Source: Candidatus Aenigmatarchaeota archaeon
GTDB taxonomy: Archaea; Aenigmatarchaeota; Aenigmatarchaeia; GW2011-AR5
Direction of reading: 5' to 3'
NCBI GenBank assembly: GCA_016180925.1
Contig: JACPAH010000002.1
Coordinates: forward strand, 1-59,818
Length of the DNA stretch: 59,818 nt
The stretch's first letter is position 1; each line of letters begins with the position of its first letter. The notes beneath the pieces are model-generated. The model had not been told where the DNA came from. It saw only the letters and a list, made by a program, of their open reading frames with translations, and made no database searches. Below, one piece after another: positions 1,165 through 57,265 of the stretch. The translations under genes and the position numbers were made by a program.

Positions 1165-1170
1165 GGTGTC

Positions 1171-1362
1171 ATGATGAGACTTGTCATGCACGATGAAACA
1201 GGGCCGAAGGAGATAAAGACAGAGCATGGCGACTCCGTGTGGGTGTGCATGTGCGGCATCAGCAGGAACAAGCCCCTTTGTGACGGCTCCCACAAGAAAA
1301 CGAAGGACGAAGTTCCGGGCAAAACGTACATATACGAAGGCGATGCGAGAAAGGAAGTTTGA
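1171..1362 (+). CDS. CDGSH-type iron-sulfur domain protein
   Basis: literal C-x-C...CDGSH motif (VCMCGISRNKPLCDGSHKK). Confidence 0.8.
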   Translation: MMRLVMHDETGPKEIKTEHGDSVWVCMCGISRNKPLCDGSHKKTKDEVPGKTYIYEGDARKEV

Positions 1363-4537: not shown

Positions 4538-7500
4538 ATGCGTGCTGCATACGTAATTCTTGCAGTTGCAATACTTACATCTATTGCCGTTGCCCAGGAC
4601 AACGGAACGCAGCAACCCTATTGCCCGACAGCAAGCTGTGGTCAAAGCTCGCAGACGTGCGCCGACGGCTTCGTCGCGACATGCCAGCAGAGCTGCGACG
4701 AGGCTTCGCGTTCATGCCAGGCGTGCACGCCTTCATGCGCCGGCCATGAACAGGTTCAGGCATGTTCAACGACTTCGGACGGCGTCTGCCCGTCAGGATG
4801 CGCAGCTGGCTCTGACGCTGACTGCTGCACGAATGCCGGCAAGAAGTGGTATTCAGGATACGGATGTTATGACGCCAGCGCTCCTGCTCCAGCGACATGT
4901 TCTGTGACATCCGATGGCATATGCCCAGGAAACTGCGCAGCCGGTTCCGATTATGATTGCTGCACCAATTCAGGAAAATACTGGTATGACAATGGATGCT
5001 TCAGCACGCCAAAACAGACTTCAACTTCCACAGGCTCCTCATCGAATACATCAACTGCGACGACTTCGTGCCCCGCAGCGCCTTCGGCTCCTGCATGCGG
5101 AAAGGAGCAGTTTTTAGATACAAAATACGATTCGAACAGGTGTATAACAGGTTATGAATGCAAAGATTCTTCACGACCCCAGACCTCATGTCCTGCAGCC
5201 CCTTCACCCCCGGCATGCAATGGCTTCCTGGAAAACAGGTTTGACAACAACGGCTGCGTTGTCGGCTACGAATGCAGGACATCTACCAACGTAAACCAGC
5301 AATGCGTTCCAGGGACGATATCTGCCAGGGACGGGGCCGGAAACTGCCAGAATTTCCCCAATTCATGCCTGCCTCCGGGATGGAGCCGCGTTGACAGCTG
5401 CGACAGGTTCCAGGCGCCGTTCTGCGGCGACGGCAGGTGCGACATAGGCGAGAACCCGAATACATGCTCTTCCGACTGCAGCGGCAGCGTGCAGACGCGA
5501 ACGACACAGACATGCCCCGACGGCTCGCAGATACAGTGCAAGCAGGATGCCGACGGGCGCACGTTCTGCGACCAGTGCCCTGTCCAGAACCTGCCTCAGG
5601 GATGCCATCAGGAAAAAGATGACAAAGGCTTCGTGAGAGTCGTGTGCGAATCCAAGAGGACATGCCCAGAAATTTCGCAGGAAGTGAGGCTCAAATGCGT
5701 CGACCAGAAAGGCATTCCGGTCTTCAAGAAAGACCCTTCCGGGTGCGAACAATTCTCGTGTCAGTTTGGCAACGAAGTATCGAACCCGTTCAGCGGCTAC
5801 AACCAGTGCCCTCAGAAGGAGCAGATAGATGCTGAAATGAACAAGTGCGGTTCCCTCGGCCTGAGAGGCGCGATAGTGTTCGAAGGAGGATGCCAGATTG
5901 CGAGGTGCGTCGAGGAAAGGAGAGAGGAGCAGTGCCCGCATGTTTCATCGCAGGAAAAGGAAAAGATAAACAGCGAATGCCTGGCAAAGGGATTCCAGGG
6001 AATAAGAAACCGCTTCGAGGGATGCCGGGAAATCATAGAATGTGCTTCAAGCGACCAAGGCCAATATTCATGCCCAAGGGACGTGCCGCCTGAGGCTTAC
6101 CAGATGTGCGGCGAGAAGGGCGGCGAGCTTATAGTGCAGAGAAACCAGAATGGCTGCGTACAGTTCTCAAGGTGCGTAGCTCCCGGAGATGCGTCCAACG
6201 TTTATGTTGAAAGATCTTCAAGGATACTTGAAAGCTCCGAGCTTCTTTCCCTTGCGTTCAAGCTTGAGTCCCTCAATGTGGAGCTTGACAAGCTTGCAAA
6301 GCAGACCAATGACATAGCCGAATACTACAAATCAACGGGCTCTGCGGACGAAGGGAGATTCAGGCGCGTCTCGGACATGTTTGTTTCTGCAAAGGAAGAG
6401 TCTAGTGGAATAAAGGACAAGATACGAAGCAAAATTGACTCGCTCACTGAAGACGACATGCTCGAGATAAAACGCGACCTGAAATACCTCAAAGATGTGA
6501 TGATAAAGGACATACTCTACGTTATGCTCAGCAGCAATGAAGACGTTGAAGGCTTCTCAGCCACATCTGAAAAATCCGAAAATGACTGCGGCACAGACGG
6601 CGGGTGCTTTGATGAGGCGTTCAGGTTGTGCAAACCAATAACATTCGAGCCCGACAGAGAGGTCACGGTCAGTATAGCCGGTCTTGATGGCGACAACTGC
6701 ATACTGAAGGCAAGGATGAAGGAAGGGAAAGGGCCTCCAGCGGGCGTGATACAGGGAGTGAATCCGCCTTATGAAATGACATGCAAGATAAAGAATTACG
6801 CCCTTGGCATGAAAGGTCCTGAGGACATAATGCCTTTCTGTGAGGGCTCCATGGTCAAGCTCATGGAACAATTCGGGCCGAACGGCGAGAATGCACCGGG
6901 AGTTCCTGGCAAGTGCAGCGGCGATGAGTGCAGGGATTACTGCGGCAGAGGACAGACGGAAGCGAAGGAATGCCTCGAGAATCTCGGGCAATACCTGCCG
7001 CCTGAGGCGAAGCAGGGCCTTGAGATGCTTGCTTCGGGCAAAGGCGGTTTCGGACAGCAAAGGTTTGACCAGGGATTTGAAGGCCAGAGCTTCCAGCAGC
7101 AGGGCTACAGGCCGCAACAGACGATACGTCCAGAGCAGTGCGAATTTACGGACATGAGCGACGAAGAATGTGTTGACTACATACAAAAAAATCTCGGGCC
7201 CCCTTCAGAATGCAAGGGCCTCACGGACGCGCAGTGCAGGAAATTCCTGCTGAGGAAATGGGAAAACCAGAAGCAGCAGCCCGTCCAATCATATGGAGGG
7301 CCGCAGCAATTCCAGCAGAGAGGACAGCAATTTGACCAAGGCGGCTTCCAGGGACAGCAACAGTTTAAAGGACAACAGGATTTTAACCAGCCGGTTCAGC
7401 AATATGGCCAGCAGCAATTTGGAGGGCAGCAGGACTTCGGACAACAACAGTTTCCACAGCAGCAGTATGGGCATGGCGGATTCAACCAGCCTGTCCAGCA

Positions 7501-7657
7501 GTTTATTGAACAAGACTATGGAAGATATGAAGGCGGGGCCCAGGGACAGCAGCAGTATGGTGGTCAGCCTCAGCAGTATTATGGCGGCGCACAGCCGATC
7601 CAACAGACTGAGCCCACATCCCAGCAAACAGTGGCTTCAGGCGGCGGACAGGGGTAG
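4538..7657 (+). CDS. large secreted cysteine-rich protein with duplicated Cys modules, a central coiled-coil-like region and a Q-rich C-terminal tail
   Basis: signal peptide MRAAYVILAVAILTSIAVAQ; duplicated TSDG.CP..CAAGSD.DCCTN.GK.WY and SCPAAPS.PAC modules; tail of QQF/GQQ repeats. Confidence 0.8.
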   Translation: MRAAYVILAVAILTSIAVAQDNGTQQPYCPTASCGQSSQTCADGFVATCQQSCDEASRSCQACTPSCAGHEQVQACSTTSDGVCPSGCAAGSDADCCTNAGKKWYSGYGCYDASAPAPATCSVTSDGICPGNCAAGSDYDCCTNSGKYWYDNGCFSTPKQTSTSTGSSSNTSTATTSCPAAPSAPACGKEQFLDTKYDSNRCITGYECKDSSRPQTSCPAAPSPPACNGFLENRFDNNGCVVGYECRTSTNVNQQCVPGTISARDGAGNCQNFPNSCLPPGWSRVDSCDRFQAPFCGDGRCDIGENPNTCSSDCSGSVQTRTTQTCPDGSQIQCKQDADGRTFCDQCPVQNLPQGCHQEKDDKGFVRVVCESKRTCPEISQEVRLKCVDQKGIPVFKKDPSGCEQFSCQFGNEVSNPFSGYNQCPQKEQIDAEMNKCGSLGLRGAIVFEGGCQIARCVEERREEQCPHVSSQEKEKINSECLAKGFQGIRNRFEGCREIIECASSDQGQYSCPRDVPPEAYQMCGEKGGELIVQRNQNGCVQFSRCVAPGDASNVYVERSSRILESSELLSLAFKLESLNVELDKLAKQTNDIAEYYKSTGSADEGRFRRVSDMFVSAKEESSGIKDKIRSKIDSLTEDDMLEIKRDLKYLKDVMIKDILYVMLSSNEDVEGFSATSEKSENDCGTDGGCFDEAFRLCKPITFEPDREVTVSIAGLDGDNCILKARMKEGKGPPAGVIQGVNPPYEMTCKIKNYALGMKGPEDIMPFCEGSMVKLMEQFGPNGENAPGVPGKCSGDECRDYCGRGQTEAKECLENLGQYLPPEAKQGLEMLASGKGGFGQQRFDQGFEGQSFQQQGYRPQQTIRPEQCEFTDMSDEECVDYIQKNLGPPSECKGLTDAQCRKFLLRKWENQKQQPVQSYGGPQQFQQRGQQFDQGGFQGQQQFKGQQDFNQPVQQYGQQQFGGQQDFGQQQFPQQQYGHGGFNQPVQQFIEQDYGRYEGGAQGQQQYGGQPQQYYGGAQPIQQTEPTSQQTVASGGGQG

Positions 7658-18038: not shown

Positions 18039-18458
18039 ATGGATGGTTCTCTGAAGAGTTCTCATGCTAGGAAAAATTTCTTACTTATTGGGTTGCTCTT
18101 TGCATTCGTCTTCGCGATGGCGGCGCCTTCGCAGGCAGCTTTGATGAATATCACGGTGGTGCAGGAAATAAGAAACCTCAGTTATTATACCATAAGCGAC
18201 CCGGTAAACGCTTCCAATATCACATTTGTCCAGCCTGAACTCAAGATAAATGTCACGGGCAACATAACCACCGTCTATAATTTCACGCTCACCGTTGATG
18301 GTGTCGAGGGACAATCATACAACATCACGAACAACACTGCTGTATATGTTAATATTTCAACCAGGCTTGCCAACGGGACGCACACCGTCTGTCATAAACG
18401 TGAGCGCCGGCACCGGAGCAACCACGAACGCCACCAATACAACGGACACCACGCCTGA
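18039..18458 (+). CDS. N-terminal fragment (signal peptide plus first repeat) of the large surface glycoprotein, in a different frame from the main body
   Basis: signal peptide LLIGLLFAFVFAMAAPSQA; NxS/T-rich repeat like the downstream repeats up to ..ANGTHTV, then nonsense (CHKRERRHR..). Confidence 0.6.
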   Translation: MDGSLKSSHARKNFLLIGLLFAFVFAMAAPSQAALMNITVVQEIRNLSYYTISDPVNASNITFVQPELKINVTGNITTVYNFTLTVDGVEGQSYNITNNTAVYVNISTRLANGTHTVCHKRERRHRSNHERHQYNGHHA

Positions 18459-21219
18459 AATACTGTTCAACCTGACTGACAATGCTGAAACGGACCAGAT
18501 AAACGTCAGCGTATACGTGGGATTCACAGGAGGAACCCTAAGCTATGACGGCAGCAAATTAATCACTAACAATACTATCGGCAGGTTCAATCTCTCGGCA
18601 AGGGCAAATGGCACTTTCCTAGTGAGATTTGAGGCAAATGATTCAGCGCGCAACCTTGCAAACGCCTCCCTGCTTACTATAACTGTCGACGACACAGCGC
18701 CGGTTTTTCAGGCGTTCACAGGCTCCGGCGGCACAGGAGCCACCCTCAATGCCACCAACACGACGGATACGACGCCTGAAGTACTTTTCAACCTCACCGA
18801 CAACGCCGAGACTGACCAGATAAATGTCAGTGTCTATATTGGCGGCACTTATGACAACTCATTTCTCTTCACTAATAACACGATAGGAAGATACAACCTG
18901 TCGGCAAGGGCAAACGGCACTTTCAGCGTTCGATTCGAGGCAAATGATTCCGCAGGAAACCTCGCCAATGCCTCCCTGTTCACAATATATGTTGACGACA
19001 CGAAGCCTTCATTCCAGTCGTTTAACTCGACTACTGGAACTACCAACAATGCCACAAACTTCACTGACACGACACCTGAAATAATAGTTAATTTCACTGA
19101 CGCCGGCGGCAGCTTCACCTTGATAAATGTTAGCCTCTATATCGGCAGCACGTTTGACCATACAGAGCTTCTCGCAAACAACACCCTTGCGAGAATAAAC
19201 GTGACTTCAGCAAGGGCTAACGGGACATTTATCTTAAGGCTGGAATCCAATGATTCTGCGGGCAATTTAGCAAACGCTTCACTGCTCACGATAACAGTTG
19301 ACGACACCAAGCCTGTATTCCAGCCGTTCAATCCTGGCAACAGCACCTCTACGAATGCCACAAATACCACGGATACAACCCCCGAGATAGCAGTCAACCT
19401 GACAGATAACGGCTTCACCACGATAAACGTCAGCGTTTATATTGACAGCACGTTCATGCAGACGTTCCTGTTCACGAATAACACGATAAACAGGGTCAAC
19501 CTTACAGCTAGGGCAAACGGCACGTTCTGGATAAGGTTTGAAGCCAATGACTCTTCAGCGAATCTTGCCAATGCAAGCCTCCTGACAATAACTGTCGACG
19601 ACACGAAGCCCGCATTCAATACATTCGACGCGTCAAATGGCGCCACTGACAATGCCACAAATACCACGGACACGACGCCGGAAATTCTGGTCAACCTGAC
19701 AGACAACGGATTTACCTCGATAAACATCAGCGCTTACATAGACGGCACATTTACCCAGACTTACCTGATAACGAACAACACTATCACGCGCATAAATCTC
19801 TCAATGGCTGGAAACAACACACCTGCAAACGGCACCCATATCGTGCGCTTCGAGGCAAATGACTCCTCCGGGAACCTGGCAAACGCGTCGCTGTTCACGA
19901 TAACCACCGATGCCGAGGCGCCTTACATAACGATATCCTCGCCTGTGAACAACACCAACACGACGGACCTCACCCCGGCATTCCAGTTCACGCTCATTGA
20001 CAATTCGTCTGCGTTCCTCAACGTGCTGAACTGGACGATATGGGTGGACGGCGCAGTCAACGGCCAGACGGGTCTTGCGGCCAACAACACACTGGTTAAC
20101 GTTTCGCTCAATGTGCTTTCAAATGTCACGCATAATATTACTATACAGGTCGGCGACTTCCTCAACAACACGAGAAACCTCACAAGATGGCATGTTTCAA
20201 CAGATGCCGTTGCACCTGTCCTCACGATATCACATTCGCCTACAACTATCTATCAGGGCAATGTGGTCACGGTCTCATGCACCATAGCCGAGAACCTGCT
20301 TACAGTTGCATCCAAGTTGACTGTAACGAAGCCGAACAGCCAGGTCACGACTCTCTCTGGCTGCGGTGCTGAATTCGGCGACACGACTGCCGTCGGCACA
20401 TATACAATCACGCTCACAGCAAATGACACAGCGGGCAATGGCGCCACGTCAACCAAGACATTTGCCGTAAGCGACTCCGGCGGCTCTTCCTCCAGCAGCA
20501 GCGGGGGCGGCGGAAGCAGCAGCGCAGCGGCGTCCACGCCAAGCACGACAGCCTCGAAGACCCTGATAGTCGATTCATTCGTTCCTGACAAGCCGAACGT
20601 GGTCAAGCTTACGAGCGAGAACATAGGCTTCAAGGAAATAAGCGTTGACATCACAAACAAGGTCAATGCCGTCGAGATAAAGGTGGTGAAGACGGACTCA
20701 GCGCCTGCTGAAGTGACAAAGGCTGTTGAAGGCAAAGTCTACCAGTACATAGAAATAAAGCACGACAAGCTGAAGGATGATAATATAAAGAGTGCAAAAG
20801 TCAAGTTCACTGTTACAAACAAATGGGCAACTGACAACGGCGTTGCAAAGGAAAATGTAGTCCTGAAGAGGTTCAAGGAAGGCTCGTGGACGGACATGAA
20901 AACAACGCTTTCAAGCGAAAGCTCAACAGAGACAACTTACGAGGCCGAGCTTCCAGGTCTTTCGGTGTTCGCAATAGGCGAAGCCGTGCCGACTGCCGCA
21001 GCCCAGCAGCCTGCCGAACAGCCTTCACAACAAACTGGACAGCAGCCTGCGCAACAACCTGCAACGCCTTCAGCTCCGGAGCAGCCTTCGGCGCAACAAC
21101 CAACTGCGGCATATTCAAATGAAACGATGTACTACGTTGCCGGCGGCGTCATACTGGTCCTTATAATCGCTTACTTCTGGGTGAAAGCCAGGAAGATAGG
21201 CAAGACTAAGAAGAAATAA
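18295..21219 (+). CDS. large sequon-rich surface glycoprotein (S-layer-like): about 6-7 tandem repeats of about 100 aa, Ser/Gly linker, PGF-pre-PGF-like domain, Q/P-rich stalk, C-terminal TM anchor
   Basis: repeats TNATNTTDTTPE...ARANGTF.VRFEANDS.GNLANASL.TITVDDTKP; ..YEAELPGLSVFAIG; final hydrophobic helix plus KARKIGKTKKK. The true 5' end is probably supplied by 18039..about 18390. Confidence 0.8.
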   Translation: MMVSRDNHTTSRTTLLYMLIFQPGLPTGRTPSVINVSAGTGATTNATNTTDTTPEILFNLTDNAETDQINVSVYVGFTGGTLSYDGSKLITNNTIGRFNLSARANGTFLVRFEANDSARNLANASLLTITVDDTAPVFQAFTGSGGTGATLNATNTTDTTPEVLFNLTDNAETDQINVSVYIGGTYDNSFLFTNNTIGRYNLSARANGTFSVRFEANDSAGNLANASLFTIYVDDTKPSFQSFNSTTGTTNNATNFTDTTPEIIVNFTDAGGSFTLINVSLYIGSTFDHTELLANNTLARINVTSARANGTFILRLESNDSAGNLANASLLTITVDDTKPVFQPFNPGNSTSTNATNTTDTTPEIAVNLTDNGFTTINVSVYIDSTFMQTFLFTNNTINRVNLTARANGTFWIRFEANDSSANLANASLLTITVDDTKPAFNTFDASNGATDNATNTTDTTPEILVNLTDNGFTSINISAYIDGTFTQTYLITNNTITRINLSMAGNNTPANGTHIVRFEANDSSGNLANASLFTITTDAEAPYITISSPVNNTNTTDLTPAFQFTLIDNSSAFLNVLNWTIWVDGAVNGQTGLAANNTLVNVSLNVLSNVTHNITIQVGDFLNNTRNLTRWHVSTDAVAPVLTISHSPTTIYQGNVVTVSCTIAENLLTVASKLTVTKPNSQVTTLSGCGAEFGDTTAVGTYTITLTANDTAGNGATSTKTFAVSDSGGSSSSSSGGGGSSSAAASTPSTTASKTLIVDSFVPDKPNVVKLTSENIGFKEISVDITNKVNAVEIKVVKTDSAPAEVTKAVEGKVYQYIEIKHDKLKDDNIKSAKVKFTVTNKWATDNGVAKENVVLKRFKEGSWTDMKTTLSSESSTETTYEAELPGLSVFAIGEAVPTAAAQQPAEQPSQQTGQQPAQQPATPSAPEQPSAQQPTAAYSNETMYYVAGGVILVLIIAYFWVKARKIGKTKKK

Positions 21220-21281: not shown

Positions 21282-21369
21282 GGGCTGGTAGATCAACTGG
21301 AAGATCGCTTGCATGGCATATCTTGCGAGCCAAGGCAAGAGGCTACGGGTTCGAGTCCCGTCCAGTCCA
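21282..21369 (+). tRNA. tRNA-Ala(GGC) with an intron of about 15 nt (21319-21333) in the anticodon loop
   Basis: manual cloverleaf: acceptor GGGCTGG/CCAGTCC with G3:U70, D arm GATC-AACTGGAA-GATC, anticodon stem CTTGC/GCAAG enclosing 22 nt, variable AGGCT, T arm ACGGG-TTCGAGT-CCCGT, discriminator A; CCA not encoded. Confidence 0.8.
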
Positions 21370-23311: not shown

Positions 23312-23416
23312 TTCTTTATATTGTCTGCAATGGCATTATGAATAAATGGCGCTGAGATGATAAAGATGGCGGCAAATGCTATCTTTAATCATTTTGCCGA
23401 ATCTAATAGAAACATG

Positions 23417-23553
23417 GGCAGGTAGCTTAGCCTGGTAGAGCACCTGACTGATATCGCAGAAAGCGCAGCTTTCTGGGAGCTTGGAAAGAAGGAAACACTG
23501 AAGTTCTTTCCCAATCATCAGGAGGTCGAGAGTTCAAATCTCTTCCTGCCCAT
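23417..23553 (+). tRNA. tRNA-Ile(GAU) with a 63-nt anticodon-loop intron (23455-23517)
   Basis: manual cloverleaf: acceptor GGGCAGG/CCTGCCC, D arm GCTT-AGCCTGGTA-GAGC, anticodon stem CCTGA/TCAGG, loop CTGATA+A, variable AGGTC, T arm GAGAG-TTCAAAT-CTCTT, discriminator A. Confidence 0.85.
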
Positions 23554-28349: not shown

Positions 28350-28580
28350 ATGAACGACGTAAGAATCGAAAGAACCGGAAAGGATTCATTCAGGGTAGGC
28401 GACAGGGAAGTCAGGACGCTGAAAGTAGGCTCGGACATATTTCCCGTGAGGACATATGTCTTTGACATGAAAACAGAGGAGTATCTGGGAGAATTTTACG
28501 GAAGCCCGCTACCGTCATTTCCGGAGCTGGATATGGAGTTCAGAGAAGGCTTGATAAGAGTAGTATACGGAAGAGAGTGA
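28350..28580 (+). CDS. 76-aa protein of unknown function inserted between rps19 and rpl22
   Basis: ORF track; 12-nt and 4-nt spacers to its neighbours; no motif recognised. Confidence 0.5.
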   Translation: MNDVRIERTGKDSFRVGDREVRTLKVGSDIFPVRTYVFDMKTEEYLGEFYGSPLPSFPELDMEFREGLIRVVYGRE

Positions 28581-29812: not shown

Positions 29813-29996
29813 GAAAGAACTCGAAGAGAAGAGAGGGGAACTGATGCTGGAGAAGTCAAAGGAGACAGCGTCGGCAGAGATAGGCGGCACCGTGAAGAAT
29901 CCGGGCAGGATACGCGAGATAAAGAGGACAATTGCCAGGATGAAGACACACGCCTCCGCGAAAGCCGGCGAAAAGCCAAGAGGTGAGCGCAAGTAA
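29772..29996 (+). CDS. rpl29: 50S ribosomal protein L29 (uL29)
   Basis: MAILRMKKIREMSEKELEEK..EL N-terminus typical of L29; overlaps the S3 tail by 41 nt. Confidence 0.88.
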   Translation: MAILRMKKIREMSEKELEEKRGELMLEKSKETASAEIGGTVKNPGRIREIKRTIARMKTHASAKAGEKPRGERK

Positions 29997-30298
29997 TGGT
30001 ATGCCCCAAGTGCGGCCTCCCGGAGGAACTTTGCGTTTGCGAGGTCATAGCAAAGGAAGTCCAGAAAATAAAGATAACCTTCACGCAGAAAAGGTACGGA
30101 AAGTACGTTACCATCATAAGGGGCATCGACCCGAAAAAGATAGACCTGAAGGAGCTCATGAGGAAGCTGAAGTCGAAGCTTGCATGCGGAGGCACATACA
30201 AGAACGGCGAAATAGAGCTCCAGGGCGACCACAGGGAAAGGGTGAAGAAAATACTGATAGAGGAAGGCTTCCAGAAGGACATAATCGAGGTGGCATGA
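29996..30298 (+). CDS. translation initiation factor aSUI1 (eIF1 homologue)
   Basis: N-terminal CPKCG..C.C zinc motif plus the SUI1 fold pattern ..RYGK.VTII.GID....DLKEL.RKLKSKLACGGT...G.IELQGDHRE.V. Confidence 0.88.
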   Translation: MVCPKCGLPEELCVCEVIAKEVQKIKITFTQKRYGKYVTIIRGIDPKKIDLKELMRKLKSKLACGGTYKNGEIELQGDHRERVKKILIEEGFQKDIIEVA

Positions 30299-30573
30299 TG
30301 AGGACGCCCGAGAACATACTGATGCACGAGCTCATAGGGCTCAGGTGCGAGGTCGTGGCGTCCCTCAACAGGTCCCAGACCGGGATTTCCGGAAGCATCG
30401 TCGACGAGACGATGAAAAGCATCGTCATCGAGACCGCGGCCGGGAGGAAGACGGTGCTGAAAAGCGGCACGATATTCCGCGTCTCGTCGGGCTCATGGAA
30501 GGCCGACATCGACGGCAGCGCGATATTGGCAAGAAGCGAGGACAGGATAAAGAAAAGGATTTCAAGATGGTGA
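30295..30573 (+). CDS. rnp1: RNase P protein component 1 (Rpp29/Pop4 homologue)
   Basis: ..HELIGL...VV.S.N....GISG.IVDETMKSIVIET......V.K....F pattern; conserved position between SUI1 and S17; start at the ATGATG overlapping the SUI1 stop. Confidence 0.85.
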   Translation: MMRTPENILMHELIGLRCEVVASLNRSQTGISGSIVDETMKSIVIETAAGRKTVLKSGTIFRVSSGSWKADIDGSAILARSEDRIKKRISRW

Positions 30574-33250: not shown

Positions 33251-33412
33251 ATGGTCAGAACGAAAGCGATAAAAAGAAAGTATGGAAAAGGCTCAAAGAA
33301 GTGCGTGAAGTGTGGGAGCATGAAGGGCATAATACGCAAGTATAACCTCGCATACTGCAGGCGGTGCTTCAGGGAGGTCGCGCCGCAAATCGGGTTCAGG
33401 AAATACAGGTGA
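33251..33412 (+). CDS. rps14: 30S ribosomal protein S14 (uS14, zinc type; 53 aa, below the ORF-track cut-off)
   Basis: hand translation [53 protein letters not shown] with the C..C...C..C zinc motif. Confidence 0.88.
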
Positions 33413-33418: not shown

Positions 33419-33778
33419 ATGGCAAAGATAATGGTCGTAGAGGATGAGGAACGATATATGGCGCAGATAGCGGAGATAGCGGAACGTGCAGGACACAGCG
33501 TTGTGAAATGTTATTATGGAGGAAGTGCGGCTGATGTTTACGACAGAGAAGTCCCGGATATGGTAGTCACTGATTTTTCATGCGGAATTACAACAGGCGT
33601 TGATGTAACAAGGCAAATAAGAGAAAGAGGAAGTGAAGTTCCTGTTTATATCCAGTCCATGCGGTCTATACCGGGTGGGCTCGTTGCAAGAAGCGGTGCA
33701 AACGGTTTCATCTTAAAGGGTAATCTTGATGCAGAACTCCCCCCTGTAATAAGAAAGCATTTTGGTGGTAGAGAATGA
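33419..33778 (+). CDS. stand-alone CheY-like response-regulator receiver domain
   Basis: KIMVVEDEE acidic pocket, MVVTDFS phospho-acceptor Asp context, ..VYIQSMRS.. Ser/Thr position, ANGFILKG Lys position; ATGA overlap with the rps8 start. Confidence 0.75.
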   Translation: MAKIMVVEDEERYMAQIAEIAERAGHSVVKCYYGGSAADVYDREVPDMVVTDFSCGITTGVDVTRQIRERGSEVPVYIQSMRSIPGGLVARSGANGFILKGNLDAELPPVIRKHFGGRE

Positions 33779-34161
33779 GGCATGACATACTTTCGGACGT
33801 GCTGTACGTGATGAACAATGCGGAAAAGATAGGCAGGGCTACCTGCACCATTCCGGCGTCGAACCTGGTGAAGAACGTCCTGAAAGTGCTGCAGAAGGAG
33901 AACTACATAGGGAGCTTCGAGTTTGCCGACGACGGCAAGTCCGGCCATTTTGCTGTCGAGCTCATAGGGAAGATAAACTTCTCGAGGTCCATAAAGCCCA
34001 GGTTCTTCGTCAAGAAGGACGACTACGAGAAGTGGGAGAAGAGGTACCTCCCTGCAAAGGGCTACGGCGTCATGATAGTCTCGACGTCGAAGGGCGTGAT
34101 GAGCCAGAAGGAGGCGGAAAAGCTCGGCATAGGAGGCCGCCTGCTCGGGTGTGTTTATTAA
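33775..34161 (+). CDS. rps8: 30S ribosomal protein S8 (uS8)
   Basis: D.LSD.L..MNNAE..G.......PAS.L....L.VL.KE.YI..FE. Confidence 0.92.
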   Translation: MRHDILSDVLYVMNNAEKIGRATCTIPASNLVKNVLKVLQKENYIGSFEFADDGKSGHFAVELIGKINFSRSIKPRFFVKKDDYEKWEKRYLPAKGYGVMIVSTSKGVMSQKEAEKLGIGGRLLGCVY

Positions 34162-34747: not shown

Positions 34748-35230
34748 ATGAGCAAAAGATTCAAGTCGCAGGATTATTTCAGGTATCCTCGCCTCGGCAT
34801 CAAATGGAGAAGGCCGAAAGGCCTCCAGAGCAAGCTCCGGCTGAAGATAGGCGGCGCCGGAAAGCTCGTTGCTGTAGGATACGGCACCAGCAGAGAGAGG
34901 AGGAATACGATAAACGGCGTCAGGTATGCCGTGGTTTCAAATGCGGAGCAGCTCGGACAGACCGATTCCAGGACCGTCATAATATCATCCGCGACCGGCT
35001 CAAAGAAGGCCCTTGAGATATCCGAGAAGGCTGCGGGCCTCGGGATAAAGATACTCAACATGAAAAAAGTCAGGAAGTCGCGCGCCATACTGAAGAAGCT
35101 CCGGGACAAAAAGACGGCGCCTTCAAAGGACGCGGGGAAAAAGGAGGACGCCAAAAAGAAAGAAGAGGCCCTCCCAGAAGAAGAAAAGCCGCGCGAGAAG
35201 ACAAAAGCGCCTGCGGAGGCAAAGAAATAA
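34748..35230 (+). CDS. rpl32e: 50S ribosomal protein L32e (eL32) with a Lys/Glu-rich C-terminal tail
   Basis: ..F..QD..RY.RLG.KWRRP.G.QSK.R... motif; start moved to MSKRFKSQ. Confidence 0.88.
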   Translation: MSKRFKSQDYFRYPRLGIKWRRPKGLQSKLRLKIGGAGKLVAVGYGTSRERRNTINGVRYAVVSNAEQLGQTDSRTVIISSATGSKKALEISEKAAGLGIKILNMKKVRKSRAILKKLRDKKTAPSKDAGKKEDAKKKEEALPEEEKPREKTKAPAEAKK

Positions 35231-35394
35231 TGTTCATAGTGTTCGGAAGCGGAAAATGCCCGCTGTGCGGGGACTTCGGGACTGAAATCTCGGAAGAAAT
35301 ATACAAATGCGAGAAGTGCCTTGTCGCGTTCAACAACTTCGGCATATCCTCGCAGTCCGGGGCAAGGCAGGCGGAAACGAAATACTGGAACTGA
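35230..35394 (+). CDS. 54-aa zinc-ribbon-like protein inserted between rpl32e and rpl19e (below the ORF-track cut-off)
   Basis: hand translation MFIVFGSGKCPLCGDFGTEISEEIYKCEKCLVAFNNFGISSQSGARQAETKYWN; CPLC..CEKC; TAATG overlap upstream, stop 1 nt before the rpl19e ATG. Confidence 0.45.
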   Translation: MFIVFGSGKCPLCGDFGTEISEEIYKCEKCLVAFNNFGISSQSGARQAETKYWN

Positions 35395-37978: not shown

Positions 37979-39496
37979 GTGAAAATGAATTTTGTTTCGA
38001 TTGCGTCAAGGCTTCCGGGCATAGAGGAGCCCAAGGTCCATCTCAATTTCAAGGCGAGGCTTAAGTGGACCGTTATAATACTCCTGCTTTTCATAATACT
38101 CTCGCACATAACTCTTTTCGGCGTGTCGCCAGAGGAGCGCCAGAGGTTCCAGTTCTTCGAGCTCATACTTGGCTCCTCCATCGGCACTCTGATGACGCTG
38201 GGCATAGGGCCTATCGTGACGGCATCCATAATACTCCAGCTTCTGGTCGGTTCCAAGATAATACCGTGGAACCTCAGGGACCCGGAAGGCAAGAGGAAGT
38301 TCCAGTCGGCGCAAAAACTCATGGTCATATTCTTCTGCGTGTTCGAGGCCTTCGCTTATGTGAGCTTCGGCGCGATAAAATCGTCTTCACCCGACTTCAC
38401 ACTGGTGCTTATAGCGCAGATAGCCTTCGGCGGCTACCTCGTGCTGCTCATGGACGAGGTGATTTCCAAGTGGGGCATAGGCTCCGGCGTCTCGCTCTTC
38501 ATAGCGGAGAACGTGTCGAGGACGATATTCGTCCGCGCATTGAATCCCCTGACACCGCTTGGCGAAACCATACCGTCCGGCCTCATACCGCAGTCCATCT
38601 CGTTCATAGGGCTGGGCGACATGTTCCAGGCCGCGATAGCATGGGTTCCGATAATCGCAACCGTGATAGTATTCCTGACTGTCGTCTACATACAGGCCAT
38701 GAAGGTGGAGATACCGCTCGCGTTCGGCAGCATACGCGGCTTCAGCCGGAGATGGCCCCTTAACATGATATACACGAGCAACATGCCCGTCATTCTTATC
38801 GCCGCTTTGCTTGCAAACCTCCAGCTCGTGGGCACGATGGTTGCAAGGCAGACCGAGGAAGGCCTCCGCTGCGGATTCCTCGGATGCTTCGACAGCAACA
38901 ACATCGCCATAAGCGGGATAGTGCAGTTCTTCCAGCCTGTCGCCTCGCTTCCGGTGCAGATATTCTTCCTCACGATACTTTCCATAGTGTTCATAACGGC
39001 TTTCGCTTCGTTCTACTTCAAGTTCAGGCACGGCCCCAGGATGGTACTGGCGGCAGGGACTGCCAGCGTCATGCTGGCTATTCTCATATCATCAGCTACG
39101 GTAGGCATGCCGACATGGGATGAATTCCTCCGCGCCGGCGTTTATTCTCTCCTGCTCATAGCCGGCTCTGTCATGTTCTCCGTTTTCTGGGTGTCGACAA
39201 GCGGAATGGACGCCAGGAGCGTCGCCGAGCAGATAGAAGGCCTCGGCATGCAGATACCTGGATTCCGCCGCGACCCAAGGATAATCGAGCAGGTCCTCAA
39301 CCGCTACATACCGACGCTTGCCATAATATCCGGCCTGTTCATCGGCACGCTGGCGGCAGTGGCCGACTTCACCGGCGCCCTCGGCACCGGCACAGGAATA
39401 CTGCTCATGGTGATGATAATCTACAATCTCTACGAGAATATAGCCAACAGGTACATGGAAGACATGCACCCGGCCATGAGGAAGTTCTTCAGGTAG
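37979..39496 (+). CDS. secY: preprotein translocase subunit SecY
   Basis: 10-TM pattern; ..LGIGPIVTASIILQLL.. plug/TM2 region; closes the cluster as usual. Confidence 0.93.
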   Translation: MKMNFVSIASRLPGIEEPKVHLNFKARLKWTVIILLLFIILSHITLFGVSPEERQRFQFFELILGSSIGTLMTLGIGPIVTASIILQLLVGSKIIPWNLRDPEGKRKFQSAQKLMVIFFCVFEAFAYVSFGAIKSSSPDFTLVLIAQIAFGGYLVLLMDEVISKWGIGSGVSLFIAENVSRTIFVRALNPLTPLGETIPSGLIPQSISFIGLGDMFQAAIAWVPIIATVIVFLTVVYIQAMKVEIPLAFGSIRGFSRRWPLNMIYTSNMPVILIAALLANLQLVGTMVARQTEEGLRCGFLGCFDSNNIAISGIVQFFQPVASLPVQIFFLTILSIVFITAFASFYFKFRHGPRMVLAAGTASVMLAILISSATVGMPTWDEFLRAGVYSLLLIAGSVMFSVFWVSTSGMDARSVAEQIEGLGMQIPGFRRDPRIIEQVLNRYIPTLAIISGLFIGTLAAVADFTGALGTGTGILLMVMIIYNLYENIANRYMEDMHPAMRKFFR

Positions 39497-41208: not shown

Positions 41209-41916
41209 TCAGAATAGCCTGACCACAATGAACGCAAAAAGCAGCATGCTTGCGAAGTCGGCGAGCGACGTCGTTATCGGCACGAGGAAGTTGTTCGGGT
41301 CCTCCTTCTTCCTGTATATGTAGATGCCGGCCGCGAGCGATGCCAGGAATATTATTCCAACGAGTATCATGGTGCACAAAACCGAGACAGCCATGACCTT
41401 CAGGAACACTGACGGGTCGAACGGGAAGCCGCCGTAATATGCCATGCCATATGATACCGCCCCGATGTACAGCGACGTTATCAGGGCGACGGCAAGAAGC
41501 GTCGCCATAAGCTTCCTAAGCCCAGGAGATTTCATCACGCCTGCCCTGATGCTTATCTTCCCTGTATAGAGCATGGCAGTGAACTTCGACGAGACTATGG
41601 TGCCGTAATCCCCTATCATGTCGTTCAGTGCCGGGAGCATTATCAGCAGCGGAATTATGGTGACGAGCTTTTCCTTCACGTTCTCAAGGCCCACGCCGCC
41701 TACCGAGCTTATGATGGCCGCTATTATAAGGATTTTCATGCTTTCCTTCATGATGACGGAAGCGATATGTGACCTCGTCCCGTATTCCTTCATGTAGAAG
41801 AGCGTCATGTAGGATATCCTGTGTTTCTTGTGCATTGAATGGATGACAGGGTGGTGCTTATGGCGCTTTATGCCGTGCAGCTTCGCGAATTTCTTGTCAA
41901 TCTTCAAAGGAGGCAC
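41209..41916 (-). CDS. MgtE-type divalent-cation transporter membrane domain protein
   Basis: ..IIPLLIMLPALNDMIGDYGTIVSSKF.. and five TM helices; the GTG start lies inside a repeat hairpin, so the true start may be further downstream. Confidence 0.7.
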   Translation of the reverse strand: MPPLKIDKKFAKLHGIKRHKHHPVIHSMHKKHRISYMTLFYMKEYGTRSHIASVIMKESMKILIIAAIISSVGGVGLENVKEKLVTIIPLLIMLPALNDMIGDYGTIVSSKFTAMLYTGKISIRAGVMKSPGLRKLMATLLAVALITSLYIGAVSYGMAYYGGFPFDPSVFLKVMAVSVLCTMILVGIIFLASLAAGIYIYRKKEDPNNFLVPITTSLADFASMLLFAFIVVRLF

Positions 41917-41954
41917 CTCCTTTGATATCTCAAAAAACTTCGTTCTTTGCAGAG
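41903..41954. repeat. family double hairpin between the two MgtE-domain genes (CAAAGGAG-gcac-CTCCTTTG, ATATCT, CAAAAAAC-ttc-GTTCTTTG, CAGAG)
   Basis: read directly; reads as the same consensus on either strand. Confidence 0.65.
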
Positions 41955-41956
41955 CT

Positions 41957-42487
41957 TCATGCGACCACCACTATTGCTATCATGAACGACACGACGCTCA
42001 TGACGTCTCCCAGGGTAGTTATATAGGGCCCCATGATGTTGTTCGGGTCGTGCCCTTTCCTGAACACCCAGAACGTCGTATACACTGTCAACGGCGCCAT
42101 GAGTATCGAAACCATGCCTGCGATGACTGAAATGAAAATTATCTTCATATTTTCAATCCCGAAGAACCAGCTGCTGGCGAGATAGGCGAAGATGCCCAGT
42201 ATGACGCTTGATATCATTATAAGGGAAGCCGTGGCCAGCATGTTGCTCTTGGCCGTCCTGTCGTTCATCTTCGGCCTGACGACACCAAGGAAAAGGCCTG
42301 AGCTGAGGCGTGCCGCCATGGAGCCGCCAAGGCTGCCGCGCATCTCGAGGAAGCCCGGTATAAGTATGAACAGGCCTGGTATGAGATATATCTGGTTTGT
42401 CATGGAAGCGAGAACCACGCCGGCGAGCAGCCCGCCCGACACCGATATGAGCTCCACGGCGAGGATTTCCCTGAAGTCATTTCCCAT
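41957..42487 (-). CDS. MgtE-type divalent-cation transporter membrane domain protein
   Basis: ..LIPGFLEMRGSLGGSMAARLSSGL..; start moved to MGNDFREIL because the ORF's 5' extension runs into the tRNA-Gly gene. Confidence 0.75.
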   Translation of the reverse strand: MGNDFREILAVELISVSGGLLAGVVLASMTNQIYLIPGLFILIPGFLEMRGSLGGSMAARLSSGLFLGVVRPKMNDRTAKSNMLATASLIMISSVILGIFAYLASSWFFGIENMKIIFISVIAGMVSILMAPLTVYTTFWVFRKGHDPNNIMGPYITTLGDVMSVVSFMIAIVVVA

Positions 42488-42553
42488 TATAAGATATTGG
42501 TTTGGGGTTAAAAAAGAGTTTTTTATAAGCTTATACAGCAATTTCTCAATAAA

Positions 42554-42684
42554 GCGCCTGTAGTCTAATGGTAGCTTGACGCTAAAGACGTCGTGCCAGT
42601 AAAGGACCACAGCCTTCCAAGCTGTTGACTGTAGCTAATAATTTGGCTCAGGCAGAAATCCGGGTTCGAATCCCGGCGGGCGCA
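42554..42684 (+). tRNA. tRNA-Gly(UCC) interrupted at three positions (about 42574-42585 D loop/stem, 42591-42608 at position 26/27, about 42626-42654 variable region)
   Basis: manual fold: acceptor GCGCCTG/CGGGCGC, GTCT-AATGGTA-[12 nt]-AGAC, G, [18 nt], ACAGC-CTTCCAA-GCTGT, [about 29 nt], GAAAT, CCGGG-TTCGAAT-CCCGG, discriminator A; TATA-like TTTTTATAAGC 24-34 nt upstream. Confidence 0.55.
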
Positions 42685-53803: not shown

Positions 53804-55159
53804 CTAAAAAACCCCCAAAACACGAAGGATTGCCATGAGGCTTACAACGCCTATTATGTCGGCAGAGCTTGCGATAAGGGGCAGCGTGGTGTTGTCCGGG
53901 TCGAGGTTGAACCTGAAGGACATTATTGACATGAAAAATGCTATCGCTATCACGGCAGTCGTCAGAACAATGCCCGATATTATAATGGATTCCGTTATGA
54001 TGACGAGGTCTATCCCTCCTATCCCGATAACGGAGCCTGCCGCGAATGTCAGCAGAGCCAGGAGCGGGAACAATATGAAAGAGAATATGTACGAGTTGAT
54101 AATATCCTCCCTGGAGCCTTCGATGGAAAATTTCGGCTCCATGGCTCCCAGGTGAAGCTTCGTCGAGAGCCTTGATGCCAGTATGTTGCCTATGTTCCCG
54201 CCCTGCTCAAGGAAGCCAGGAATCAGAAGCAGCACCACAGGGAGCATGGCAATATTCTCCATGTTCGACTGGAGTATCATGCCGGCGAAGGAGTCCAGCA
54301 GGATGCCTGCAAAAAGGATTGGCGAGCTCTGCCTCACTATCTCGGCAAAATACGCCTTCCCGGCTTTTGCCATTCGGAAGGCGCATGCAATGAAAATAAC
54401 AAGGATGATTATTGCCGCAGGAAGGACAAGCTGCTGGAACGAGAGGATAAAAAATGCGGCGAGGAGGAGGGAGGGTATGGTGAACATGTCGCCCAGCGCG
54501 GTTATTATCGGGGACGATATGTTGTCCGGATTCCATCCCCTCCTGAACGAGGCGAACGCGATGATGAAAGTCATTGCCAGAAGTATGGCTCCCGATATGA
54601 TTCCGCCCATGAAGGATATCACGACAAGCGAAAGGAGCGTTATGCTTTCTATGCCGAACGCAAGAAGGATGACCCTTGCGATGAACGCCAGAAGCACGGA
54701 GAAAATGACGGACAGGACCACCGACGAATATATGTTGCTCCTGATTATGTGGTTGTCCTTCGAGAAGCCTTTTACGGTGCCGAGGTGCAGCGCGGAGCCG
54801 AGCCTCGAGCCAAGCGATGAAAATATGTTGCCTCTCATGCCTATCGCGGCCGGAACAAGGACAATGAGGCCGGGCAGTGCTATCAGCATTTCATTGTAAT
54901 GTCCCAGGAATATCCCGGCAAACAGCCCTGCAAGGATGCTTATGGCGTACGCAACCGAGCTCTGCCTGAAGAATGAAGAGTTCCTCCTCATGTGCTTCGC
55001 GAAGCGCCTTGCAGAATCAGCAAGGCTGTCGCCAACAGTGACATCCCTTCCAAGCGGCTCAGACGCAGGCCTGTGATATTCGTAGCTCTGTTCCTCAGAA
55101 ACGAACATCCTCTTCAGGAGGCGCCTTGCCTTGTCCCTTTTCCGGGCTTGTTTCATCAT
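53804..55159 (-). CDS. tandem (fused double) MgtE-type divalent-cation transporter membrane domains
   Basis: two copies of the P(A/G).......G.....LASRLS..LHLG pattern (VPAAIGMRGNIFSSLGSRLGSALHLG; IPGFLEQGGNIGNILASRLSTKLHLG). Confidence 0.8.
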   Translation of the reverse strand: MMKQARKRDKARRLLKRMFVSEEQSYEYHRPASEPLGRDVTVGDSLADSARRFAKHMRRNSSFFRQSSVAYAISILAGLFAGIFLGHYNEMLIALPGLIVLVPAAIGMRGNIFSSLGSRLGSALHLGTVKGFSKDNHIIRSNIYSSVVLSVIFSVLLAFIARVILLAFGIESITLLSLVVISFMGGIISGAILLAMTFIIAFASFRRGWNPDNISSPIITALGDMFTIPSLLLAAFFILSFQQLVLPAAIIILVIFIACAFRMAKAGKAYFAEIVRQSSPILFAGILLDSFAGMILQSNMENIAMLPVVLLLIPGFLEQGGNIGNILASRLSTKLHLGAMEPKFSIEGSREDIINSYIFSFILFPLLALLTFAAGSVIGIGGIDLVIITESIIISGIVLTTAVIAIAFFMSIMSFRFNLDPDNTTLPLIASSADIIGVVSLMAILRVLGVF

Positions 55160-55173: not shown

Positions 55174-55746
55174 TCAGCGCCTCCCTTCAGCCATACGACG
55201 GAGCTTCTTGCAGCTTGCCTTCGGACCGATCCCTATCAGTATGTCGTTCTTCGCGAGCCTGGTCTCCTTCCTCGGGTTGAATATCCACTTCGGGCCGCGC
55301 CTTATGGCTATTATATGTATTCCGGTCTCGGTGCGCAGGCGCAGGTCGCCTATCGTCCGGTTCGCAAGGGGCGATATTCCGGATATCACGGTGCGCGCTA
55401 TCCCTTCGTCGCTTTCCTTCAGAGCCTCCTTTATTATCGGATGCAGTTCCTTGTTGTCAAGCACGAGCTGGCTCATGTTGCGCGCGGCGCCGGCAACGCG
55501 CTTTGCGCTTTCCACCACTTCAAGGACGCTTATAAGCTTCTTCGCGAGATGGGGCTCGCGGGACGCGGACAGAAGGTGTATGGTTATCTTCTCTTCCATT
55601 GACTCTATCCTGTCATAAAGCTCCACCACTTCGGAAGCGATGTCCTTGCTCGTGAAAAAGACCGAAGAGTAGGACAGGTCGAGCATCAGACTCGAAAGGT
55701 TCTTCATTTCCTCAAGCAAGTCCTTGACGTTCTCCTGCATAAGCAT
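55174..55746 (-). CDS. PhoU-like helical domain fused to a TrkA-C (RCK C-terminal) domain; likely regulator of the adjacent transporter
   Basis: ..LANRTIGDLRLRTETGIHIIAIRRG.....P....RL...D.L...G TrkA-C pattern; start set at MLMQENVK. Confidence 0.65.
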   Translation of the reverse strand: MLMQENVKDLLEEMKNLSSLMLDLSYSSVFFTSKDIASEVVELYDRIESMEEKITIHLLSASREPHLAKKLISVLEVVESAKRVAGAARNMSQLVLDNKELHPIIKEALKESDEGIARTVISGISPLANRTIGDLRLRTETGIHIIAIRRGPKWIFNPRKETRLAKNDILIGIGPKASCKKLRRMAEGRR

Positions 55747-55915
55747 CACCTGAATAGACTTCCCACCCGAAGATTTAAAACGATTTGGGACATCAATTAA
55801 TAATGAATCTGCACAGTGCAGAAAGAACACACGAGCTCGATATGGCCCTCATAGAGCAATACGTCAGGGAACTGCTTGAAGGCCCGGAGCGCGCGCCTCT
55901 GGCAAGGGTGGAGAT

Positions 55916-56287: not shown

Positions 56288-57265
56288 ATGCTGTTTGGTA
56301 TGCCCGACATATACGAATTCGAGCTGATAACGCCGGAGAAGAAGGACGAGCTGCTCGACGAAATAAACGGCAGGAAAATAAACATAGAGAAGGCGTACAT
56401 ACACGGGATGTGCATAGAGCTCATCACGGACAGCAAGGAGTTCAAGGAGTTCTGGCAGGACAACTTCCACCACATCTCGGAGCACATAAGGCCCCATGGC
56501 CGCGTGATAGCGATGCAGCATCCTGGATACGGGAAGCCTGAGTTCCTCTACGAGCCCATGTCCAAGACGTGCTTCGTCATGAACTGCGACTATTACGGGT
56601 ACGTGAAGAGCATCGCGCTTGCGGTGGCGGCCGACTTCCTCGAGGACTACCATTCGCTTACGAACAGGTACTCGATACACGGCTCCTGCATAGACATAAA
56701 CGGGCAGGGGCTTGTCCTGATAGCCCCGTCGAACACCGGAAAGACGACCCACAGCTTCGGGCTGCTTCTTTACAGGAACGCCAGCCTTGTCAGCGATGAC
56801 TGGCTGTTCGTCCGGATGAAGAAGGACACTGCTATCGCATACTCGTCGGAGCGCAACAGCTACATACGCGACGACATTGGCAAGAACTGGAAAATCTTCC
56901 AGCCGCTTGTCGACAACGCAATGCTCGACAAGAAAGGCCGCGGCATCGCCAGTGTCCAGGACGTCATAGGGATGGACAGAACGAGGGAGACAACTACCAT
57001 AAGAAGCGTATTCATACTCAAGAGGGACGCCTCGGACAGCAGGATAATATATAGACTGCCGCCTGACGAAGCCGTGGAATACATATCGAAGCACTATTAC
57101 TGCAATCCCTACCAGCTTGTCATGGACGAAAGGAAGATACGCCTGCGCACTGCGTTCTTCATGCAGCTTTTCTCCATGCTGGACGTCTACATGGTCAACA
57201 CCGTGAAGCCGCCGGAAGAGACGCAGGCTGAAATCCGCAGGCTTGTGGATGAAATATTCAAGTGA
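56288..57265 (+). CDS. P-loop protein resembling the HPr kinase/phosphorylase C-terminal (PEPCK-like) fold
   Basis: HGSCIDINGQGLVLIAPSNTGKTTHS resembles HG....V.G.GVL..G.SG.GKS; function not assignable. Confidence 0.45.
   Translation: MLFGMPDIYEFELITPEKKDELLDEINGRKINIEKAYIHGMCIELITDSKEFKEFWQDNFHHISEHIRPHGRVIAMQHPGYGKPEFLYEPMSKTCFVMNCDYYGYVKSIALAVAADFLEDYHSLTNRYSIHGSCIDINGQGLVLIAPSNTGKTTHSFGLLLYRNASLVSDDWLFVRMKKDTAIAYSSERNSYIRDDIGKNWKIFQPLVDNAMLDKKGRGIASVQDVIGMDRTRETTTIRSVFILKRDASDSRIIYRLPPDEAVEYISKHYYCNPYQLVMDERKIRLRTAFFMQLFSMLDVYMVNTVKPPEETQAEIRRLVDEIFK

Follow-up and report, generated by a model that had tools for sequence, protein, structure and literature searches.

A receiver gene on a candidate variable cassette between rps14 and rps8 in a ribosomal-protein cluster of Aenigmatarchaeota

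The gene order L5-S14-S8-L6 is among the most stable in prokaryotes. Why, in one archaeal genome, should a gene for a phospho-receiver domain stand between S14 and S8? The DNA analyzed here, referred to below as the window, is a stretch of 59,818 nucleotides (nt) from Candidatus Aenigmatarchaeota archaeon (assembly GCA_016180925.1, contig JACPAH010000002.1), and the gene in question is an open reading frame (ORF) of 119 amino acids (aa) at 33419..33778 (+), starting with ATG and ending with TGA. It sits within a long, densely packed archaeal S10/spc ribosomal-protein cluster, preceded by L3, L4, L2, S19, L22, S3, L29, aIF1/SUI1, Rpp29, S17, L14, L24, S4e, L5, and S14 and followed by S8, L6, L32e, L19e, L18, S5, L30, L15, and SecY. 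An earlier note, made from the sequence letters alone, had described the ORF as a stand-alone CheY-like receiver expressed in step with the ribosomal proteins and had taken its codon usage as a sign of acquisition. With moderate confidence, we lean toward reading the gene as a functional, phosphorylatable single-domain regulator of the CheY/Spo0F type that would ride on a variable accessory cassette within the spc operon, at the S14|S8 junction, and that would be expressed with the operon, limited by its codons, and exchanged between lineages. The main surprise is the mode of evolution of this gene in the operon, more than the presence of a receiver there.

The receiver and its junctions

The translated ORF matches the Pfam profile Response_reg (PF00072) with 49.3 bits, against a gathering score of 30.2 (E = 6.4e-13), and residues 4-107 align with positions 1-106 of the 111-position profile. 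An AlphaFold prediction based on three members of the family (predicted local distance difference test [pLDDT] 87.9, predicted template modeling score [pTM] 0.84) has the regular (βα)5 topology, with strands at residues 3-7, 27-31, 48-52, 76-80, and 96-99 and helices at residues 11-23, 34-44, 60-69, 86-92, and 100-115. The best PDB neighbors that Foldseek found for it are all receivers (YycF, Spo0F, DesR, MtrA, and others), with template modeling (TM) scores of 0.78-0.87. Together with the orthologues found in the same slot of related genomes, these results identify the ORF as a CheY-like member of the receiver (REC) superfamily. The earlier note had named a failed hidden Markov model search as grounds for abandoning this assignment; the search succeeded, and the fold model agreed with it. 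The receiver is a stand-alone protein with no C-terminal output domain, since it ends at residue 119, after α5, where the S8 start already overlaps. Among the NCBIfam models, those for DNA-binding response regulators matched in their receiver part only and far below their cutoffs. It is not a CheY orthologue, the CheY_Halo model giving 25 bits against a cutoff of 200 and every curated equivalog cutoff lying far above the score obtained.

The acidic pocket, the acceptor Asp, the Ser region, and the Lys in FILKG that the earlier note had listed are all present, in the motifs VVEDEE (E8, D9, and E10), MVVTDFS (D52), VYIQS (S80), and GFILKG (F97 and K100). Their positions match the strands of the model, with E8 and D9 after β1, D52 and S80 closing β3 and β4, respectively, and F97 and K100 around β5. 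E8, D9, D52, S80, F97 (the switch position), and K100 are invariant in six full-length alleles, whose pairwise identity is 42-60%. The predicted phospho-acceptor, Asp52, is encoded by the GAT codon at 33572..33574 (+). With its phospho-acceptor pocket intact, the receiver is apparently phosphorylatable. The reading frame, too, is intact in six lineages (118-124 aa), and the ratio of nonsynonymous to synonymous divergence (dN/dS) of the receiver is 0.2-0.4, a rough figure since dS is saturated.

The placement between S14 and S8 was confirmed by Pfam. Upstream lies rps14 (33251..33412, +), encoding a zinc-type S14 of 53 aa (PF00253, 36.8 bits) that shares 81-89% identity with its counterparts in three relatives carrying the insert, L084, L004, and L001 (L numbers denote comparison loci), and downstream lies rps8 (33775..34161, +), encoding an S8 of 128 aa (PF00410, 91.5 bits) with 94% identity to that of L084 and 78% identity to that of L001. 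L5 precedes S14, and L6 follows S8. The tight junctions were confirmed from the sequence as well. The TGA of S14 (33410-33412) is part of GGTGA, a Shine-Dalgarno-like element across the S14 stop codon (33408..33412, +), and six nucleotides (CGAAAA) separate this stop codon from the receiver ATG at 33419. At the other end, the receiver TGA (33776-33778) overlaps the S8 ATG (33775-33777) to give ATGA (33775-33778), and a second Shine-Dalgarno-like element, GGTGGT (33764..33769, +), lies 5 nt before the S8 ATG, inside the codons for the C-terminal HFGG of the receiver.

The same layout of AGGTGA, a spacer of 4-6 nt, and ATG is found in L001, L004, L084, and L088, and the alleles share one design on both sides. 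The 5′ side consists of the AGGTGA at the end of S14, the 4- to 6-nt spacer, and the start ATGGCAAA (ATGATGGCCAAAA in L129), and the 3′ side consists of a GGTGG or GGTGA motif, a short spacer, and the ATGA that overlaps S8. In the empty sites of L007, L008, and L119, a GGTGA motif stands 4-5 nt upstream of the S8 ATG. By its position, the GGTGA at 33408..33412 appears to serve the receiver in the window and to serve S8 directly in insert-free relatives. At the 3′ end, the codons CAT TTT GGT G are identical in all five lineages, despite saturated flanking synonymous sites; because these codons form the GGTGG/GGTGA ribosome-binding site (RBS) of S8, the conservation of HFGG would be partly at the level of the RNA.

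L129 has a second gene in the slot, orf139 (139 aa; 799..1218, +), which lies between the receiver and S8, has a GC content at third codon positions (GC3) of 0.39, and ends in GGGTGA, a spacer, and an ATGA overlap with S8. We found no match to orf139 in Pfam, NCBIfam, PADLOC, PHROGs, or PDB sequences and no copy of it in the window or any other locus retrieved. Judged from this anatomy, the locus shows that the S14|S8 junction can accept cargo of one plan, with an RBS in the end of the preceding gene and an ATGA hand-over to the next.

Since the S14-receiver-S8 arrangement recurs in independent assemblies from NCBI, ENA, Logan, and JGI, an assembly artifact is ruled out. We also considered an out-of-frame shadow ORF, for which a GC content higher at first than at third codon positions is the pattern in the window. 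This candidate was rejected because of the Pfam score, the invariant catalytic residues, and protein-level conservation in seven lineages, and because the opposite-strand ORFs overlap S14 and S8. A possible internal archaeal TATA box (TTTATAT within the VYI codons) was dropped, as L084 has ATTTACGTT instead.

Variation, probable exchange, and distribution of the alleles

Between the window and L084, 24 neighboring genes are 78-96% identical at the amino acid level, with dS values of 0.14-0.88 and dN values of at most 0.14, whereas the receiver is 45% identical, with a dS of 1.76, which is saturated, and a dN of 0.55. A conserved 5′ segment (33419..33480, +) encodes β1, the acidic loop (E8-D9-E10), and the first part of α1; its first 60 nt are 87-95% identical to those of L084 and L004, and MAKIMVVEDEE.YMA.IA is near-invariant across all alleles. 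The hypervariable core (33481..33750, +) runs from β2 to α5 and includes the invariant D52, S80, F97, and K100. Over the ~270 nt of this core, nucleotide identity between the window and L084 is ~50%, against ~81-93% for S14, the first ~60 and last ~25 nt of the receiver gene, and S8, and the edges between these levels are sharp.

At the conserved residues of the core, the window and L084 use identical codons in 11 of 30 cases, compared with 98 of 115 in S8, 135 of 150 in L5, and 321 of 454 in SecY (85-90% for S8, L5, and S14; 71% for SecY). Because synonymous sites at conserved core residues are thus randomized, the divergence of the core appears to be old and not a recent burst of amino acid change, and we rejected a recent burst of positive selection as the cause of the divergence from L084. 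A third close relative, L118, whose S8 is 95% identical, carries yet another allele.

The host tree, built by neighbor joining on concatenated ribosomal proteins (165-529 sites, with missing data), places the window, L084, and L118 together at a distance of 0.07 and L129 and L004 at 0.26-0.34. In the allele tree (neighbor joining on a short alignment), by contrast, the window pairs with L129 (98% bootstrap support) and L084 pairs with L004 (92%). This conflict points to exchange of the cassette by recombination. The first 60 nt of the window gene, moreover, are 95% identical to those of L004, versus 80-87% in the flanking genes. The most economical interpretation is a swapping of receiver cores between lineages, through homologous recombination within the conserved ends of the gene and within the ribosomal-protein genes on either side. 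Two Logan contigs (L115 and L116) start at the position corresponding to 33481, the 5′ edge of the core, L117 starts at 33543, and L118 starts inside the receiver; four independent short-read contigs broken inside this gene would fit, without proving, the co-occurrence of alleles within samples. A diversity-generating retroelement was set aside as the source of the variation, the differences including indels and spanning the whole core; no reverse transcriptase or template repeat was seen among the ORFs scanned, though no dedicated test was made. Taken together, the divergent core with its sharp edges, a nonhost base composition in all carriers measured (see below), the conflict between the trees, and variable presence characterize the locus, as far as sequence comparison goes, as a variable cassette.

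The variation is not spread evenly over the fold. Mean pairwise identity among alleles is 0.73-1.0 for β1, the acidic loop, β3, β4, and β5, 0.56 for α1, and 0.46 for α5, against 0.15 for β2, 0.11 for the β4-α4 loop, and 0.14 for α4. In receivers generally, kinases and phosphotransferases dock on α1 and the active-site loops, and output usually goes through α4-β5-α5. Such a distribution of identity would fit a conserved phosphodonor or relay function combined with a variable output surface.

The earlier note had proposed a survey of S14-S8 junctions in related genomes, and this survey found both filled and empty slots. The nearest L5 and S8 homologues come from metagenome-assembled genomes of Candidatus Aenigmatarchaeota, mainly from groundwater. 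Seven receiver alleles were found in one subclade of Aenigmatarchaeota, all between S14 and S8: that of the window (119 aa, also in the identical Logan contig L003), that of L084 (123 aa, CAYJVT010000005.1), that of L118 (partial, ENA), that of L004 (118 aa, JACPJX010000058.1), that shared by L001, L002, and L088 (119 aa; ENA, Logan, and JGI), that of L128 (118 aa, JASEIF010000224.1), and that of L129 (124 aa, JGI 3300045950). When we searched 1.84 billion representative proteins with hmmsearch, three family representatives were recovered at E < 1e-30, and the next matches were generic multireceiver proteins at E = 1e-23 or worse. A scan of metagenomes with the family alignment added L088, the second copy of the L001 allele; its other 25 matches were generic receivers with 24-31% identity. 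As far as sampled, the receiver family appears to be tiny and confined to the S14|S8 slot.

No insert was found in 22 other DPANN loci, comprising distant Aenigmatarchaeota (L006-L011) and Woesearchaeota, Nanoarchaeota, and Micrarchaeota (L012-L027), in all of which S8 directly follows S14 with a gap of <35 nt. In the host tree, all carriers fall in one subclade, with ribosomal-protein distances of up to 0.34, and this subclade also contains three insert-free lineages with clean junctions (L119, L120/L121, and L122-L127), of which L119 adjoins L004 and L120 adjoins L001. Either a single gain of the insert followed by two or three losses or its lateral spread inside the subclade would account for this distribution.

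Codon usage and predicted expression

The A/T-ending codon usage first judged by eye was borne out by calculation. At 0.34, the GC3 of the receiver lies below the 0.54-0.82 of its 26 companions in the cluster and the ~0.49-0.78 of the remaining real genes of the window. Its codon-adaptation index, referenced to all other genes, is 0.45, the lowest of 60 window genes (mean, 0.71; standard deviation, 0.063; z = −4.1), and GGT, GAT, AGA, and GTT are strongly in excess among its codons. The receivers of L084, L001, L004, and L129 have GC3 values of 0.34, 0.38, 0.42, and 0.32, respectively, against 0.64-0.85 for the flanking genes of these loci.

These values bear on the proposal that the codon bias marks an acquisition. 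If this genome had recently acquired the gene horizontally from an AT-rich donor, and no function had yet settled, that would explain both the GC3 of 0.34 and a codon adaptation lower than in any other gene of the window, as well as a receiver core that differs from that expected from the closest relative. However, the insert occurs in at least seven lineages, and GC3 is low in every allele measured even though the alleles are 42-60% identical, which would have left ample time for drift toward the host; the bias is therefore not that of a recent arrival. Further, lineages up to a ribosomal-protein distance of 0.34 have the slot, junction design, and conserved ends in common; no donor family outside the slot was present among the 1.84 billion representatives; the catalytic residues are invariant, with the rough dN/dS of 0.2-0.4; and the difference from the L084 allele is limited to the core of the gene. 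Recent acquisition is thus largely refuted, and we give it very little credence. Low GC3 (0.32-0.42) appears instead to be a maintained property of the cassette, due either to selection for low output or to renewal by exchange from a pool of low-GC alleles.

The decay of a former gene would leave a similar trace of poor codons. According to this explanation, the ORF would be a relic retained only for the RBS and start codon of S8 embedded in it, and its fast evolution, its clean loss in some lineages, and the preservation of the HFGG codons at the nucleotide level would all follow. We consider this highly improbable, as the frame is intact in six lineages, the phosphorylation residues have stayed invariant at 42-60% identity, the fold is predicted with confidence, and dN/dS, rough as it is, lies well below 1. 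The clean empty sites, moreover, show that S8 expression does not need the gene.

Under the reading that we prefer, a functional regulator on an exchanged cassette, the receiver would be transcribed as part of the operon mRNA, with an RBS as its only expression signal of its own. Its translation would be initiated from the GGTGA overlapping the S14 stop codon, and ribosomes would be handed to S8 via the ATGA overlap, with S8 retaining its own GGTGG site in the last codons of the receiver. The nonpreferred, A/T-ending codons most likely keep the yield below that of the neighboring ribosomal proteins; the poorest codon adaptation in the window argues for such a reduced protein output. The phosphate on Asp52 would come from a donor encoded elsewhere, which could be a histidine kinase or an HPt protein that docks on the conserved α1 face, or from a small acyl phosphate; once phosphorylated, the receiver would act by contacting other proteins or serve as a relay or sink for phosphate. 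Movement of alleles between lineages would most simply proceed, as outlined above, through recombination in the conserved ribosomal-protein genes and gene ends. The earlier note had claimed co-transcription and translational coupling with the ribosomal genes, and the gene arrangement is as expected for both, their operation being read from the junction anatomy. Its further claim of expression in step with the ribosomal proteins is plausible for the mRNA but not for the protein, given the poorest codon adaptation.

The analogy that suggests codon-limited output is with dnaG of the Escherichia coli rpsU-dnaG-rpoD operon, whose rare codons, reportedly in the view of Konigsberg and Godson in 1983, were thought to limit its yield. 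Like dnaG, which encodes a low-abundance protein, the receiver is a nonribosomal gene that directly follows a ribosomal-protein gene, presumably on one transcript, and that uses rare codons, but dnaG is essential, universal, and conserved in sequence, whereas the receiver is lineage specific, dispensable, and hypervariable. The arrangement offers a testable case of how output is set within a polycistronic ribosomal-protein mRNA by rare codons and embedded RBSs. Another comparison is with the nonribosomal passengers of the S10-spc cluster itself, aIF1/SUI1 (29996..30298), RNase P Rpp29 (30298..30573), and SecY (37979..39496), whose stops and starts overlap like those of the receiver. These genes have host-like codon usage (GC3 values of 0.71-0.82) and are 89-96% identical between the window and L084, in contrast to 0.34 and 45% for the receiver.

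Partners, rival functions, and neighboring genes

Several observations weigh against the reading of the gene as a codon-limited, exchanged regulator. Among the plausible ORFs of the 59.8-kb window, Pfam detected no histidine kinase, HPt, CheA, or second receiver. With a single fixed output partner, a regulator would not usually have a hypervariable α4 region. The low GC3 could stem from repeated import from an unsampled AT-rich pool and not from selection on expression, and the second cargo gene in L129 shares it (0.39). Finally, the count of losses versus transfers is uncertain, as the host tree was made by neighbor joining on 165-529 sites with missing data.

The absence of a histidine kinase from the window, as claimed beforehand, was upheld by the Pfam scan of plausible ORFs; neither were HisKA, HATPase_c, or HPt domains found in the 12-kb L084 locus nor cheA, cheW, cheF, or archaellum genes among the window ORFs. 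The sole kinase-like protein seen in the window, a 325-aa protein at 56288..57265 (+), matches the C-terminal domain of HPr serine kinase weakly (35.3 bits, against a cutoff of 33.3) and is not a histidine kinase.

REC-only proteins are the commonest kind of archaeal response regulator, at ~40% of the total, and in the census of archaeal two-component systems that gives this figure, most of them lacked an informative or conserved neighborhood, so that their function could mostly not be inferred (PMC5847659). The four complete DPANN genomes surveyed there encode 0-1 histidine kinases each (PMC5847659). The gene described here is a rare case of an archaeal REC-only protein with a conserved neighborhood, and it invites the question what role such a phospho-receiver can play in DPANN archaea, given at most one histidine kinase per surveyed genome.

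One possible answer, implied in the earlier note, lies in the neighborhood itself. As a regulator linked to the ribosome, the receiver would bind the small subunit, an assembly intermediate, or a translation factor, its phosphorylation would tune translation, and its location would reflect a functional link. The S14-S8 location and the coupled start and stop signals have been kept in all seven alleles, the family was found nowhere else among the 1.84 billion representatives, and the conserved α1 and β5 and parts of α5 could make a fixed interface. Yet its conservation and distribution are unlike those of ribosomal proteins, at 45% identity between the window and L084 against the 78-96% of the 24 neighbors, among them the ribosomal components, and the gene is absent from L119, L120, and L122, close lineages that manage without it. 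The alleles, too, appear to have been exchanged across lineages, the codon usage argues for substoichiometric output, and the C-terminal conservation derives partly from the S8 RBS. We therefore regard a ribosome-linked regulator as rather unlikely. It is likewise unlikely that the receiver has a conserved role on the ribosome, structural or stoichiometric, because it appears to be dispensable, exchanged, and variable at its surface. In the literature, we found no report of a receiver inside a ribosomal-protein operon or of a single-domain regulator on ribosomes.

The pattern of variation suggests a different, equally tentative possibility. The S14|S8 junction may be a dedicated hot spot for small cargo selected to be diverse, with the ribosomal-protein genes providing homology arms for recombination and strong constitutive transcription. 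In that case, the receiver and, in one lineage (L129), orf139 would form part of a system for defense, counterdefense, or host interaction that is under diversifying selection. This module for conflict or partner recognition would be directed at a virus or at the host of an episymbiont, its α4 diversifying while its phosphorylation chemistry stays fixed. Such a function would account for deep allele types between near-identical flanks, variable presence among close lineages, low GC3 in both cargo genes, the disagreement of the allele tree with the host tree, contigs broken inside the gene in four samples (suggestive of co-occurring variants), and the concentration of variability in surface elements (the β4-α4 loop and α4).

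Database searches bear against it. PADLOC gave no convincing match, its best E value being 0.01 for the window receiver and 1.5e-5 for the L129 allele only, the latter to the N-terminal part of SduA alone, and membership in a defense system was rejected on that ground. The family alignment found no relative among the 2.9 million viral contigs of IMG/VR, GenBank phages yielded generic receivers only (25-32% identity), and the PHROGs matches were to generic receiver families, on which basis a viral or mobile-element origin was rejected. In six of the seven lineages, furthermore, the cassette holds no nuclease, toxin, or other effector, and the saturated dS bars a measurement of positive selection. 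We consider a conflict-driven cassette a doubtful proposition.

The regulator that we favor resembles known single-domain proteins in some respects and departs from them in others. Like CheY, Spo0F, DivK, and FilR2, it consists of one (βα)5 domain of ~120 aa with the full set of active-site residues. Unlike them, it is fixed in the spc S14|S8 junction, has no kinase or che genes within 60 kb, belongs to a tiny, isolated family, and is hypervariable with low GC3, and unlike a classical paired two-component system, it has no adjacent histidine kinase in the window or in the L084 locus.

As a genetic arrangement, the cassette is closer to the O-antigen (galF-gnd) and pneumococcal capsule (dexB-aliA) loci, which are variable and are exchanged through their conserved flanking genes. 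It shares with them a GC content that is low for the genome, deep alleles between conserved flanks, and an allele tree in conflict with the strain tree. It differs in comprising one or two cytoplasmic, signaling-type genes (~0.36-0.8 kb) between ribosomal-protein genes and in specifying no surface structure. If this comparison holds, even the spc operon can host accessory, recombining cargo, in this case a lineage-specific, poorly codon-adapted, and exchanged signaling gene.

Two further small ORFs lie in the ribosomal-protein cluster. Between L32e and L19e, a 54-aa ORF (35230..35394, +) encodes a CxxC...CxxC zinc ribbon that has no Pfam or NCBIfam match, is 94% identical in L084 (dN, 0.024), and is also present in L114 and L120. 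Its codons are host-like (GC3, 0.72; adaptation index, 0.78), and in being like a ribosomal-protein gene, it is unlike the receiver; it may encode a lineage-specific, ribosome-associated small protein. Between S19 and L22, a 76-aa ORF (28350..28580, +) is 78% identical in L084 (dN, 0.14) and has a GC3 of 0.54-0.57, the second lowest in the cluster; it has no family match.

Outside the cluster, three genes for divalent-cation transporters with MgtE domains, together with a PhoU/TrkA_C regulator, lie within 15 kb (41209..42610, 53804..55159, and 55174..55830, all −), and in L084, an MgtE gene likewise follows SecY. A 1,039-aa ORF at 4538..7657 (+) has no Pfam match, and a 974-aa ORF with bacterial Ig-like domains at 18295..21219 (+) probably encodes a surface protein. 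There are three tRNA genes (21282..21369, 23416..23552, and 42554..42684, all +), of which the two that span 131-137 nt probably carry long introns.

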